Shown here: positions 222 through 25,658 of the stretch, piece by piece
Layout of the letters: every line of letters starts with the position of its first letter
How positions within the stretch are numbered: position 1 is the stretch's first letter
Assembly (NCBI GenBank): GCA_038826135.1
Contig: JAWBON010000002.1
Location: 1-30,257, forward strand
DNA length: 30,257 bases
Source of the DNA: Candidatus Odinarchaeota archaeon
GTDB taxonomy: Archaea > Asgardarchaeota > Odinarchaeia > Odinarchaeales > Odinarchaeaceae
Direction of reading: 5' to 3'
Program-made: the position numbers and the translations under genes
Notes under the pieces: model-generated
What the model saw: only the letters and a program-made list of their open reading frames with translations
Database searches by the model: none
What the model was told of the DNA's origin: nothing

Positions 222-1643
222 TTGCTTAAAGCTAAAAGACTGGGAGTTTACTCCTTGATCGGTATCATCCTGTTAACTGTGGGCTTATCTTTCACAATTT
301 ATAATAAGGCTCTTGTAAACGAGGCCCGCGAGTTGTACACTTTATCCATCGAGAACGGTTACACAGCTAATTTCACTATTAACTTAAACTATAATGATAG
401 GGTTCTAATCTATATTTCGCCGTTTAAGCAGGTCAACTACACTCTGACTATTAAAACAAGCAACGCTACTACAGTAATTAACTCAACTCAAATATATAAT
501 AAGACACTATTAATCACCGTAAACAGTTCTGAAACACATCGTTTCTCCTTAAATGAGCTTCCCCCCTTCCAGTATACTCAGATACGGTTTGAAATGGTTA
601 GATACGCTAATGAACCGGTGAACACTTATATCGTATTCGGTCTGCCGTTAACTATCATCGGAGTTCTACTTAGTATTCTAGGTTTCAGAGAGCTAGGTTT
701 CTTAAAGATTAAAATTGGAGGCCGCCCCAGCTACAGTTTAAAAGAGTTTTCTTTAATAATTGCGGGGGTTATGTCCTACTCGCTTATTATAATAATGCTG
801 CAGCGTTTTCCTATAGGCCTTATCTTCCAGGACTGGTTGATAATTGGATTACTGCTGTTTGTTTCACTTATGAACATAATATTAATTTATTTAATATCGA
901 TGATTTTAACCGGGGATAAACTTAAATTATTCTCCATACTCTTAGTTGCATTAGCTTATTTATGGATCCCCTTATCCTTAACATTTTTAATTCAATCACA
1001 AGCTATTGTATTTAACTATTATGACCCCGATAACTCACTCAGTTTTGAGCTTATTAAAGACTTTGCAGTAAACTATACAAGTATTTATTTTCAAATTATT
1101 TTACTTGTATTAATATTTCCATTATTCTACATATATCTCGGTTATAACTGGGGTAAATCCATTTCTATTGACACGGGTTCAAGTCAGGAAAACCAGCTTC
1201 CAACAACTCCTTTAACTTTATTGAAGAATCAGTTAATAGATTCTGTACATAAAAAAGACGCAGCCAGCTTCTTTAAAATTCTGCGTGAAGAAAGCATTGA
1301 AGCCTCAGCTATACTATATATAGTGATTAGAGAGTATGTGGATAAAGGTGTCTGTGAGTTCACTTATCATAAGCTGATTACAGAGTATAGTGACTTGTTT
1401 AATAAGAAGCTGTATGAACGGAAACCCGTTGAACATTTCTTAGCACCCTTGTCGCTTGTTGAACAGCCTTCTGGAAGATTTAAATTTTTCAAGTTGAACA
1501 CGGATGCTCAGGAAATAAAATTTATAGTTAAAAGTTTTAACCAGCACAAGAATTTAGAGTTTGCTAAATTTCTTGAGGATGCTTCAGGGGTTGGAGAGTT
1601 AAGAGAGAGGAAGCTTAAGTTCAGCGGCTCTGACCGTTTTTAA
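222..1643 (+). CDS. Multi-pass membrane protein: N-terminal TM, glycosylated extracellular domain, about 5 further TMs, cytoplasmic C-terminal domain (possibly winged helix)
   Basis: 473-aa ORF with hydrophobic segments at about aa 9-28 and 137-310. There are six N-x-S/T sequons in aa ~50-105 and a soluble charged C-terminal ~150 aa. An AT-rich TATA-like stretch lies at ~186-196. No family recognised. Confidence 0.7.
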   Translation: MLKAKRLGVYSLIGIILLTVGLSFTIYNKALVNEARELYTLSIENGYTANFTINLNYNDRVLIYISPFKQVNYTLTIKTSNATTVINSTQIYNKTLLITVNSSETHRFSLNELPPFQYTQIRFEMVRYANEPVNTYIVFGLPLTIIGVLLSILGFRELGFLKIKIGGRPSYSLKEFSLIIAGVMSYSLIIIMLQRFPIGLIFQDWLIIGLLLFVSLMNIILIYLISMILTGDKLKLFSILLVALAYLWIPLSLTFLIQSQAIVFNYYDPDNSLSFELIKDFAVNYTSIYFQIILLVLIFPLFYIYLGYNWGKSISIDTGSSQENQLPTTPLTLLKNQLIDSVHKKDAASFFKILREESIEASAILYIVIREYVDKGVCEFTYHKLITEYSDLFNKKLYERKPVEHFLAPLSLVEQPSGRFKFFKLNTDAQEIKFIVKSFNQHKNLEFAKFLEDASGVGELRERKLKFSGSDRF

Positions 1644-1654
1644 AACTGTTTTTG

Positions 1655-1693
1655 ATTTCCACCTTTACCTTAATGTATTTCCACCTTTATATA
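1655..1693 (+). promoter_or_regulatory. 13-bp direct repeat ATTTCCACCTTTA (1655-1667, 1677-1689) overlapping a TATA box TTTATATA (1686-1693)
   Basis: The exact repeat has a 22-bp period. The TATA lies ~28 nt upstream of the ATG at 1721, and a GGTGA SD is at 1712-1716. Confidence 0.6.
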
Positions 1694-1720
1694 GTATTAC
1701 AACAAAAAAATGGTGATAGT

Positions 1721-3277
1721 ATGAGTAAAAACACCATAAGAGCGTTAGCTATAGGAATAGCTTTACTATTCGCTGTGGGTTTAGCAGCCCCATCGCTTAT
1801 CCAGGCACGGCCAAGTCAGCTACCGGATGAATATGATTACATCGGTCACAGGTTCACAGAAACATCTTGGTCTACGGAAGTTGACTGGATGGATATATTT
1901 AGGCTAGCTGTTCAACAGGTTTCAGAGAGTTTGCCAGCAGCGGCTAACTTAACTGGTGTGATGCCGCCTGAATTCGATAATCTATCTGTTATGACATATC
2001 ACGCTTTCGTAAACCAGTATAATTACTGGATGCTCTACAGTGGGTTTGAATACATTTACTACACTGATGGTGTACATGAATTAAACGGTACAATGCCGAT
2101 GCAGACAATAATTCAATCCTATAAAACATCATCCGGGTTAGAAGTCTACTCTGTTCAAACATACCTTCTTATCGCAGCTTTTCAAGACGATAACGTTAAT
2201 GGTGTATTTGATAATGACAGTGAACATTTGTTTTTAACAGTAGGATTCGGATTTGATGTTTCTACTTGGCTTGGAATGTTTCCTAACTCTACTTTAGCTC
2301 GTGAAATATTCGAGACGCCTATGCTAGTTACAATTGAACCTCTTACACAGGTGAACGGTGGCTATGAATGGGGTATGAAATACAAGGGGATCAAACTATT
2401 GATTATAGACAGAGACGGGGGAACCCTCCTCGGTTTGATGAGTTTGAAAGAGTTAGATTTTCACTATGTTCTAGGCTTTGACCAAGCTAATGGGCGTGTG
2501 ACCATTAACACATATTACACTATCGGAGCACCTGAACGGCTTCTATTAAGCGACGGCACCTATATCTACAATGATCCCGCTCATGACAATTATACTCTAA
2601 CAGACTTCTTCTTAAGTTCTAATATAGTTCTCGGGATTGTGAACTTGCAGCTTACATCTATTATAGACCCGTACCACCACCCAGTTACGTCTGTAACTCA
2701 TAATGAAACAGCTGTTAATAGTTCTACTGAAGACCTGGATTTAAGTGATAGCTGGTATACAACCTACGCTGGTGAGGAGAGAGTTTTCCAAGTCGACTTT
2801 GGAACAAAGAAAACCTATACTACAACCCATCCGAATGGTACTGGGACAGGGGAACACCTTGCAATAACAAGGTTGTACAATGCTTATCTGGGTAAAGGTA
2901 TCCTTGAAGCGCCTGTTTACGCGGTTTCAGCTGCTTTAATAAATCTTCCTTCAGCGATAGCTGTATTATACATGTCTGAGAATATGTTAGCAGGGATTAG
3001 AGCTTTATTCGGTATACTGTTCCCATTCATCCCGAACGGTGAAGAAATATTAGAGAATATAAACACGGTTTTCCCACTTAACATTGAAGCCAACGCTAAC
3101 TATTATGTGATATATTATCCTGCGTGGAAAGGTCAGATAGTTGAACATGACCCTGTGTTTATCGCGTTCGCTGATCTTTCATTTCTACTGAACCCTGCGA
3201 TTCTAGCACCTTTAGTGGTTATCGGTATAATAGCTGTTGTCATTGTAGCTATGGTTATTATAAGGCGTAGACGTTAA
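1721..3277 (+). CDS. Secreted, C-terminally membrane-anchored cell-surface glycoprotein
   Basis: Start moved to ATG 1721 (SD GGTGA). Signal peptide MSKNTIRALAIGIALLFAVGLAAPSLIQA, nine N-x-S/T sequons, and a C-terminal TM followed by RRRR. Confidence 0.75.
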   Translation: MSKNTIRALAIGIALLFAVGLAAPSLIQARPSQLPDEYDYIGHRFTETSWSTEVDWMDIFRLAVQQVSESLPAAANLTGVMPPEFDNLSVMTYHAFVNQYNYWMLYSGFEYIYYTDGVHELNGTMPMQTIIQSYKTSSGLEVYSVQTYLLIAAFQDDNVNGVFDNDSEHLFLTVGFGFDVSTWLGMFPNSTLAREIFETPMLVTIEPLTQVNGGYEWGMKYKGIKLLIIDRDGGTLLGLMSLKELDFHYVLGFDQANGRVTINTYYTIGAPERLLLSDGTYIYNDPAHDNYTLTDFFLSSNIVLGIVNLQLTSIIDPYHHPVTSVTHNETAVNSSTEDLDLSDSWYTTYAGEERVFQVDFGTKKTYTTTHPNGTGTGEHLAITRLYNAYLGKGILEAPVYAVSAALINLPSAIAVLYMSENMLAGIRALFGILFPFIPNGEEILENINTVFPLNIEANANYYVIYYPAWKGQIVEHDPVFIAFADLSFLLNPAILAPLVVIGIIAVVIVAMVIIRRRR

Positions 3278-3302: not shown

Positions 3303-3519
3303 ATAGAATTGATAGTGATGGTGTGAGGGACCCGTCTTTTAAAGATATAAGACCCTTCTCTAAACCTGTTTTCAGAATCATTTGGGCTTCTGATGGTTTT
3401 AAAACTCTTAAGTCGAATGAGAGGGTGTAAATGAACTCTTTCTCGTCTAGTGAATATTTATTTCTAGACTTGAATGGGAGCCCTATTAAACGGTTTTCAT
3501 CACCAGTTCTATCCGGCAT
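3301..3519 (-). CDS. Short DUF2240-like protein (N-terminal part only, 72 aa)
   Basis: The motif F..(KG/RN)K..L...EFIYTLSFDL.....EA..ILKTGLEKGL matches my recollection of archaeal DUF2240. Start moved to ATG 3519, overlapping the GTPase stop by 11 nt. Confidence 0.6.
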   Translation of the reverse strand: MPDRTGDENRLIGLPFKSRNKYSLDEKEFIYTLSFDLRVLKPSEAQMILKTGLEKGLISLKDGSLTPSLSIL

Positions 3520-4450
3520 GTGAGCCCCCCAGTTCTTTTTTATCTTCAATTTTCTCTGTTTCCATTTTAGATATTTTGAGGCTGACTCCTTTAGCTTCAA
3601 ACCATTTCTCCATGGCTTCCCCTATTATTTTGAGTAGTGTTTTTCTATTAGAGGGGTCTATTCCAACAATCCCGTATGTTTTAATACCTAGAACACGGTT
3701 TACAAGTTCTGGTTTAACCGCTCCCGGTAGATCCTGCTTGTTAGCTATCCCTATTACCTGGGTGGTTTTAGATACATTATCCATGAGTTTGAGGAAATCT
3801 TTACGGGTTTTTAAAACATTCACTATGGATGAATCTAGTATTAGTAATACTATATCCGAGGCTTGTACTAGGCGGTCCCAAGCTTTCTTAAACTGGTCTT
3901 GGCCTCCGAAATCCCATATGCGTAAGGGTATCTTGTACTCGCCGATCTTGGCTTTAACGCCGCCGATGTCTACGAATATTGTAGGGTCGTGTTCGATCGG
4001 TGTCTCCTCGCCTTTAATCAGTTTGAATATTGTTGTTTTACCAACGCCGCTGGAGCCTACTAGTGAGATTTTTATTGGGCCTAAAATTATTTTATCAATT
4101 TCTTCGCTGAAGGGTTCAAAAAGACTTGTATCACCATTCCAGGTGTCTAACTCTTGCTGAAATCTTCTGATAAACTCTTCTTTAAGGGTGGTGATCTTCT
4201 CCTGTGCAAGTCCCTCATCCTCGTCTTCGCTTGTAGCTAATACGAATATCAGGTCTTTCGCAACTCCGTATATGAATTTAATATTTCCTGTTCTGATTAT
4301 TTTAATAATGTCGCCGCTTACCTCGGTTACAAATGATTGAAGTGCGCTGAGGAAGCCTGAGATTAATCCCTCATCTAAAAGCTTAGGACCGTAGTTTTTA
4401 GAGAAAAGACATTCCCCGCTTCTCCTTATTATATATACATGATGTATCAT
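3509..4450 (-). CDS. Longin-domain / Arf-like small GTPase fusion protein
   Basis: aa 1-~122 show the longin pattern (VYIIRRSGECLFSKNY, LISGFLSALQSF, KFIY..KDLIFVL). GTPase motifs: G1 GSSGVGKT, G2 PTI, G3 WDFGGQ, G4 NKQD. Confidence 0.88.
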   Translation of the reverse strand: MIHHVYIIRRSGECLFSKNYGPKLLDEGLISGFLSALQSFVTEVSGDIIKIIRTGNIKFIYGVAKDLIFVLATSEDEDEGLAQEKITTLKEEFIRRFQQELDTWNGDTSLFEPFSEEIDKIILGPIKISLVGSSGVGKTTIFKLIKGEETPIEHDPTIFVDIGGVKAKIGEYKIPLRIWDFGGQDQFKKAWDRLVQASDIVLLILDSSIVNVLKTRKDFLKLMDNVSKTTQVIGIANKQDLPGAVKPELVNRVLGIKTYGIVGIDPSNRKTLLKIIGEAMEKWFEAKGVSLKISKMETEKIEDKKELGGSHAG

Positions 4451-8903: not shown

Positions 8904-9197
8904 TTACTGCGGTTTCTCCGCTTCAACCTCCTCCATTTCCTCTTCAAGTTCTTCTATTGGAATCGGCGGCGGTGTAGTCATCATCGTATACCCGATCCAC
9001 GCTGCAATAGCCATAATTCCGATAATTGCAAGCCATAATGGTATAGCTAGAGCCCAAAGATAGTTAGCATATAAAGTGTTTCCAAGTGGAAGAACATCAG
9101 GTAATAATGGGACAAGTATAACCCAATACGTGTAGCCTATTATTATTATAACTGCTATTATAAATATTATAGCACCGTATGCTTTGTCCTTAGCCAT
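8904..9197 (-). CDS. Small two-TM membrane protein, DPM2/PIG-P-like
   Basis: 97 aa, two TMs and an acidic tail, with SD GGAGG. Motifs D...G, YT.WVIL.P, A.AIPL and I.Y.M resemble eukaryotic DPM2 and PIG-P (comparison from memory). Confidence 0.7.
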   Translation of the reverse strand: MAKDKAYGAIIFIIAVIIIIGYTYWVILVPLLPDVLPLGNTLYANYLWALAIPLWLAIIGIMAIAAWIGYTMMTTPPPIPIEELEEEMEEVEAEKPQ

Positions 9198-25118: not shown

Positions 25119-25658
25119 ATGTTAACAACGACTCTAATACCCGGAATATTTGAAATAGTCCAGTACCCTCCAGGATCAGCGATCCTAGTTGTAGGTATAG
25201 CTGTTGTAACAGCTTTAGTTTCGAATCTTATTACACGGTTGCTAACTGATACAGCTCAGCTTAAAAGATATACTAAGCAGATTAGACTTCATAAAGAAGC
25301 TTTGAAAAAAGCTGAAACGGAAGGGGATACTAAGAAAATCATTCAACTTCAAAGAAAAAATAAATACATACAGAAGATCTCTGGAAAAATGGCTAAACAA
25401 AGGTTAAAACCTCTAATATTCACTTTTGTACCGTTAATAATATTATTCTTTATACTCAACAATTTTTTCACATCTAGCGGCTCCGCTATATTAGTCGCCT
25501 ACACCCCATTCCGACTTAACACTCTCCCCTTTATAGGCACGCTCCTGGGCAAAGTCGACTCACTAGGTTATGGTCTTTACTTTGTATTCTGGTATATGAT
25601 CTGTAACTTTGCCATAGCCACTGTAATATCGAGAGCTCTTGGAACATCAGGTGAATGA
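25119..25658 (+). CDS. EMC3/TMCO1 (DUF106, Oxa1 superfamily) membrane insertase
   Basis: TM, coiled coil, then two TMs (KPLIFTFVP, WYMIC). Canonical position after secY-adk. Confidence 0.9.
   Translation: MLTTTLIPGIFEIVQYPPGSAILVVGIAVVTALVSNLITRLLTDTAQLKRYTKQIRLHKEALKKAETEGDTKKIIQLQRKNKYIQKISGKMAKQRLKPLIFTFVPLIILFFILNNFFTSSGSAILVAYTPFRLNTLPFIGTLLGKVDSLGYGLYFVFWYMICNFAIATVISRALGTSGE

Follow-up and report, generated by a model that had tools for sequence, protein, structure and literature searches.

A gene in the window (the whole 30,257-nucleotide stretch of Candidatus Odinarchaeota archaeon contig JAWBON010000002.1 that was analysed) encodes an N-terminal longin domain fused to a small GTPase (G) domain, and its product is very probably a longin-ArfL. 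The G domain lies outside the true Arf lineage, and an Arf-related ancestry is not supported. As the preliminary description had said, the class is already known from Asgard archaea: longin-GTPase fusions and the ArfL clade have been reported since 2016, as ArfL by Vargova et al. and as LG by Tran et al., and the protein is an ordinary member of this family.

Gene and sequence motifs

The ORF had earlier been given without a strand; it lies on the minus strand (Table 1), and the plus-strand ORF that overlaps it (3474-4160) is presumed to be a shadow frame. The preliminary description's intact small GTPase stands: motifs G1 to G4 are all present, together with a six-stranded G-domain fold, and K138, T139, T157, D180, G183, Q184 and NKQD are invariant across the homologue alignment, as is the switch II Trp191. 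G5, previously called a degenerate GIVG, is indeed variant in sequence, but it is not decayed, since it follows a conserved family variant, G-[MIL]-[VI]-A-I-[DNE] (114 homologues); the window protein has Gly at position 263, where 96 of the 114 have Ala. In G3, the window protein and its subclade carry DxGG; GG occurs in only 14 of the 114 homologues and DxAG in 100.

Four Pfam families score above cut-off in the window protein: Arf (64 bits, residues 126-258), Roc (55), Ras (47) and Gtr1_RagA (26). At the N-terminus, matches to Fuz_longin_1 and Clat_adaptor_s are both below the Pfam cut-off. Sixty-five homologous N-domains matched Fuz_longin_1 in 25 cases, Clat_adaptor_s in 21 and Longin in 6. 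The fusion protein has no C-terminal cysteine. The first half of its tail, modelled with low confidence, is conserved only in this Odinarchaeia paralogue clade; the stretch WF..GV.IKI.KIETE (window 3512-3600, minus strand) is kept in that clade and is absent from the pan-Asgard paralogue.

Table 1. Position of the fusion gene, its domains and motifs, and the overlapping downstream gene in the window
Feature	Position	Strand	Remarks
DUF2240-like gene, 72 aa	3301..3519	-	its ATG overlaps the end of the fusion gene by 11 nt
Probable longin-ArfL small GTPase fusion gene, 313 aa	3509..4450	-	ATG start; ORF list, Pfam, homologue search, AlphaFold2, tree
Longin domain, aa 1-123	4082..4450	-	its last helix, 114-123, adjoins the G domain
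ArfL-type G domain, aa 126-286	3593..4075	-	Pfam, tree, AU test, fold comparison
G1 P-loop GSSGVGKT, residues 132-139	4034..4057	-	no Arf-type GLD
G2 Thr157	3980..3982	-	invariant in homologue alignment
G3 WDFGGQ, residues 179-184	3899..3916	-	catalytic-position Gln184 invariant
G4 NKQD, residues 237-240	3731..3742	-	invariant in homologue alignment
G5 variant GIVGID, residues 260-265	3656..3673	-	family consensus G-M-V-A-I-D
C-terminal tail, aa 287-313	3512..3592	-	low model confidence, no cysteine

Domain structure

In an AlphaFold2 model built with 114 homologues as input (mean pLDDT 79, pTM 0.70), residues 2-123 adopt the order beta-beta-alpha-beta-beta-beta-alpha-alpha, which is the longin topology, and residues 126-286 form the G domain. 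The N-terminus is beta1 of the longin, and an amphipathic N-terminal helix is absent from the model. Folded alone, the N-domain matched synbindin (2zmv; Z 15.7, rmsd 2.3 A over 118 residues), Sec22b (3egd_C; Z 15.6, 2.1 A over 119) and VAMP7 (4afi; Z 15.2), these top three longins superposing at 2.1-2.4 A over 115-119 residues. Roadblock domains fell under the solved longins, with Z of at most 10.5, so that the longin fold claimed for the N-terminus is borne out. SRX longins gave Z of 10-12 and those of Mon1-Ccz1, DENN and GATOR1 Z of 9-10; the matches also include 8yqg, a Lokiarchaeal longin crystallised as a dimer. The G domain matched Arf and Rab alike at Z of 20-21, the two groups being inseparable by fold.

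Phylogenetic position of the G domain

The G domain was placed in a tree of 80 Asgard G domains (IQ-TREE, LG+C20+F+G4; Asgard sequences only, no eukaryotic rows), in which the ArfR group is anchored by L001, a near-copy of GerdArfR1 (PDB 8OUN; 331 bits). The fusion family forms its own clade (100/99) with a long stem, separate from ArfR-like (95/94), Rag-like (100/96) and RasL (100/98) sequences and from two MglA-like groups (100/99); the best tree joins ArfL with Rag, weakly (92/69). The window protein is the second, Odinarchaeia-specific paralogue of the family (subclade 100/99). Its 100/99 clade also contains P0030 and P0037, by eye near-copies of published ArfL sequences; in the Table S3 rows of Vargova et al. 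(bioRxiv 10.1101/2024.02.28.582541) from which labels were taken, which hold no Odinarchaeum entries, the counterparts of P0030 and P0037/P0038 are labelled ArfL. An AU test rejected forcing the window protein's subclade into ArfR (p=0.002); with the whole ArfL family as sister of ArfR it gave p=0.18. The Arf-related GTPase of the preliminary description is thus not upheld, given the separate clade outside ArfR in this Asgard-only tree, the rejected ArfR placing and the ArfL labels on close homologues.

Motif comparisons place the protein in the same way. It shares with ArfR/AArf and with eukaryotic Arf and SRbeta the fold, NKQD and the Trp that ends switch II (W191), and it has the Arf-family DxGG in G3. 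It lacks Leu-Asp at positions 2-3 of G1 (the GLD of Arf), the 18-residue interswitch, an SA-type G5 and the N-terminal amphipathic membrane helix, although many ArfR also lack that helix (Zhu et al., PMC11914678). G1 is GSSGVGKT in the window protein and G[FY]GG in the family, and it is GLx-type in all 17 ArfR-like sequences; the spacing from the G2 Thr to the G3 Asp is 22, within a family range of 18-22, and every one of the 17 ArfR-like sequences has 18. Arf structures are matched at 44-49 bits, against 143-151 bits for true ArfR. Like eukaryotic Rag/Gtr proteins, weakly its nearest group in the tree, the window protein combines a G domain with a module of the longin/roadblock class. However, it falls outside the Rag clade, its longin is N-terminal where Rag/Gtr have a C-terminal roadblock, its G4 is NKQD and not HKxD, and Pfam Gtr1_RagA scores only the 26 bits given above.

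These results bear on the idea that the protein resembles a fused ancestor of the SRalpha-SRbeta or adaptin-Arf1 pair, its longin touching an Arf-related G domain in the same chain. Its top Pfam and PDB sequence matches are Arf proteins, and ArfL as sister of ArfR survives the AU test. Nevertheless, the reading as a fused ancestor-like pair is highly improbable in view of the low bit scores to Arf structures, the rejection of an ArfR placing and the weak joining of ArfL with Rag, which accords with the placing of ArfL near Rag and outside the Arf clade by Zhu et al. 2025 (PMC11914678). SRX longins rank below the top matches of the N-domain, and the family was unmatched in the searched genomes of the families richest in ArfR, with 15 candidates scored per genome.

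Distribution and paralogues

A homologue search gave 279 matches. The organism-named ones among the best 120 of the 279 are all Asgard, which bears out an Asgard origin of the gene, and the closest named ones among the same 120 belong to Odinarchaeia. NCBI labels of 'Hodarchaeota' on some matches were not relied on; matches of that subgroup resemble orthologues of genes in Odinarchaeia genomes. The family profile matches 114 of 151 Asgard genomes at E<=1e-40. It found no match in the searched genomes of families f4, f18, f21, f24, f25 and f27, the families in which the best Arf-scoring proteins occur; because only 15 candidates were scored per genome, this is not proof of absence. An 86% identical orthologue, with gene order kept, occurs in a complete genome (G001) that is almost certainly that of Odinarchaeum yellowstonii.

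The source genome also encodes a 46% identical paralogue (on C57), a more diverged fusion of longin and GTPase (C10), a relative that stands alone (C97) and, besides these, some eight further longin proteins. The gene of the C57 paralogue (C57:1953-2849) is separated by one SSB-like gene from an ESCRT cluster (two Snf7, Vps4, ESCRT-II; whole locus L088, G000:C57:1953-7359), and in the sister family a C57-type longin-ArfL gene still has an ESCRT-III-like gene within a few genes of it (L087, L089); this proximity may be plain synteny. The Vps4 gene of the cluster (L088:4979-6634, plus strand, 551 aa) has a sub-cut-off Intein_splicing match at residues 177-327, inside the AAA domain, and the matched segment is possibly a mini-intein. 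At G000:C10:21059-22817 the gene of the diverged longin-GTPase (363 aa) stands head to head with a RasL gene, with two more longin-containing genes nearby on the same contig.

Gene neighbourhood

The DUF2240-like gene is linked to the fusion gene only within the genus and is probably outside any conserved module with it. Upstream, a membrane protein gene and gatE/gatD are conserved across the class. An operon-level module was rejected because the first link is confined to the genus and the second is plain class-level synteny. A promoter and terminator scan with a bacterial model found no more than it did in shuffles.

Three other loci in the window were noted. Positions 222-3277 (plus strand) encode two membrane-anchored proteins that belong to no Pfam family and are conserved beside the GTPase gene across Odinarchaeia. 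A 97-aa membrane protein (8904-9197, minus strand) matches DPM2 above the cut-off and PIG-P below it; its gene adjoins SIS-domain and phosphomannomutase genes, and the protein is 97% identical over 75 aa within the genus. An EMC3/TMCO1-like gene of the Oxa1 superfamily (25119-25658, plus strand) follows secY and adenylate kinase in a ribosomal protein cluster, an arrangement that is ordinary for archaea.

Domain junction and possible mechanism

In the AlphaFold2 model, the last helix of the longin is followed by two residues and then by beta1 of the G domain, and the span F114-K127 is 14 residues long in 110 of the 114 homologues. For an Asgard homologue, an independent model from the Atlas can be superposed across both domains, over 268 residues (TM 0.70/0.79), which suggests that the domains keep a fixed arrangement. 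Strand beta1 of a G domain starts at the end away from the nucleotide site. SRX and the longin GEF/GAP dimers touch the P-loop and the switches. With beta1 so placed, the modelled topology makes an in-cis copy of such contacts unlikely, and the short junction of fixed length argues against an SRalpha-SRbeta-like contact in cis. The compact in-cis model of the SRalpha-SRbeta or GEF partnership, which the preliminary description had seen in this protein, is therefore weak.

The beta1-beta2 loop of the longin lacks a GP motif, the residue after G12 being E or K, and the 114 homologues hold no conserved Arg in this domain; a GP motif before beta2 and an arginine finger mark the GAP longins FLCN, SMCR8 and NPRL2 (PMC12290439). 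The longin might instead act in trans as a GEF/GAP platform, a dimeric longin working on the G domain of the partner chain or on a different GTPase, for example the stand-alone ArfL on C97, in the manner of TRAPP, Mon1-Ccz1 and folliculin. Eukaryotic longin dimers do act in this way (PMC12290439 and PMC10933270), weak similarity to Fuz/Mon1 longins was found in the 25 of 65 members matching Fuz_longin_1, and the stand-alone ArfL is present in the same genome. Yet the absence of the GP motif and of a conserved arginine, together with the low rank of the Mon1-Ccz1, DENN and GATOR1 longins in the fold search, makes this role improbable.

The rigid junction would also suit allostery in cis. The last helix of the longin would then occupy the site of the Arf N-terminal helix and sense or restrain the beta2-beta3 hairpin, and as a result either the longin would move with the nucleotide state or it would tune exchange. 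Two structural alignments to Arl2 reach this helix (1ksg_A, model 106-286 against chain 0-179; 9edr_G, model 110-284 against chain 1-191), although these ranges are end points only, and the invariant Trp191 and the DxGG of the subclade are Arf-like. The G2-G3 spacing of 22, however, departs from the 18 of ArfR-like proteins, and 100 of the 114 homologues have DxAG instead of the Arf DxGG. Allostery of this kind seems unlikely. It is a rather improbable proposal in its specific form, that the last helix replaces the Arf N-terminal helix and that the nucleotide state moves the longin in cis, making a self-contained, non-membrane switch whose Odinarchaeia paralogues possibly pair as Rag proteins do. 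In that case ArfL would illustrate signalling by a longin and a GTPase joined in a single chain.

From the model and by analogy, we lean towards a soluble switch in which the longin is the contact point for another longin, by docking or by dimerisation. Within the ArfL group, described as exclusive to Asgard archaea, the protein would act as a soluble GTP/GDP switch that carries its longin rigidly attached ahead of beta1, and it would bind GTP and hydrolyse it slowly. As a module for docking or dimerisation, the longin would pair with a longin of another copy of itself, of the paralogue or of another longin protein of the genome; such pairing would bring the switch into a complex, similar to the pairing of Rag GTPases by roadblock domains. 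It would not act in cis as GEF or GAP on its own nucleotide site, and membrane localisation, if any, would come via partners. The fixed junction, the Atlas superposition and the lack of a GP motif or conserved Arg count for docking or dimerisation, as do the Lokiarchaeal dimer 8yqg and the AF2 homodimers that Tran et al. (PMC10933270) give for MK-D1 longin-GTPases, with typical longin contacts and, in one case, low confidence. Against it, the closest structural matches include the monomeric longin modules Sec22b and VAMP7. A homodimer prediction for residues 1-290 scored 0.29, against a mark of 0.42, and counts neither for nor against dimerisation; inter-domain covariation over 166 sequences (effective number 41) gave noise-level pairs only.

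Relation to known longin-GTPases

Homologues of the same architecture, namely WP_147664152.1 (MK-D1), OLS16432.1 and TKJ18978.1, are ArfL in the tree of Vargova et al., and the preprint describes ArfL as exclusively Asgard and without direct kinship to eukaryotic Arf. The window protein shares with ArfL proteins such as WP_147664152.1 the longin and G domains, the length, the junction and the G3, G4 and G5 motifs; it differs in having GSSG and not G[FY]GG in G1, DxGG and not DxAG, a Gly at the position of Ala in G5, and a tail of greater length. In MK-D1, Tran et al. 2024 (PMC10933270) count 26 GTPases that carry a fused roadblock or longin domain; they list WP_147664152.1 as LG (longin-GTPase), an architecture like that of the window protein, and give AF2 models of such fusions. 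Longin-GTPases are classed there as Rag-like by structure, whereas in the present tree they fall outside the Rag clade and are its sister group at most. Dey et al. 2016 (PMC4917890), citing Klinger et al. 2016, mention Lokiarchaeal Arf-like GTPases that carry a fused longin, five longins in all. Longin fusions also occur among true Asgard Arfs (Zhu et al., PMC11914678); one example, L028:1474-2634 (minus strand, G025:C51), encodes 386 aa, in which an N-terminal longin precedes a G domain of true ArfR type (GLDRAGKT, 18-residue spacing). A literature search found no biochemical or structural study of any ArfL protein.

On its own the window protein has little meaning, since both its architecture and its clade are already on record, and ArfL is said to have left no eukaryotic descendants. 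Longin-ArfR fusions such as L028 are better models of how the SRalpha-SRbeta or adaptin-Arf partnership arose. The value of the window protein is practical: it is a compact, 313-aa member of ArfL with a close paralogue, and thus convenient for testing.
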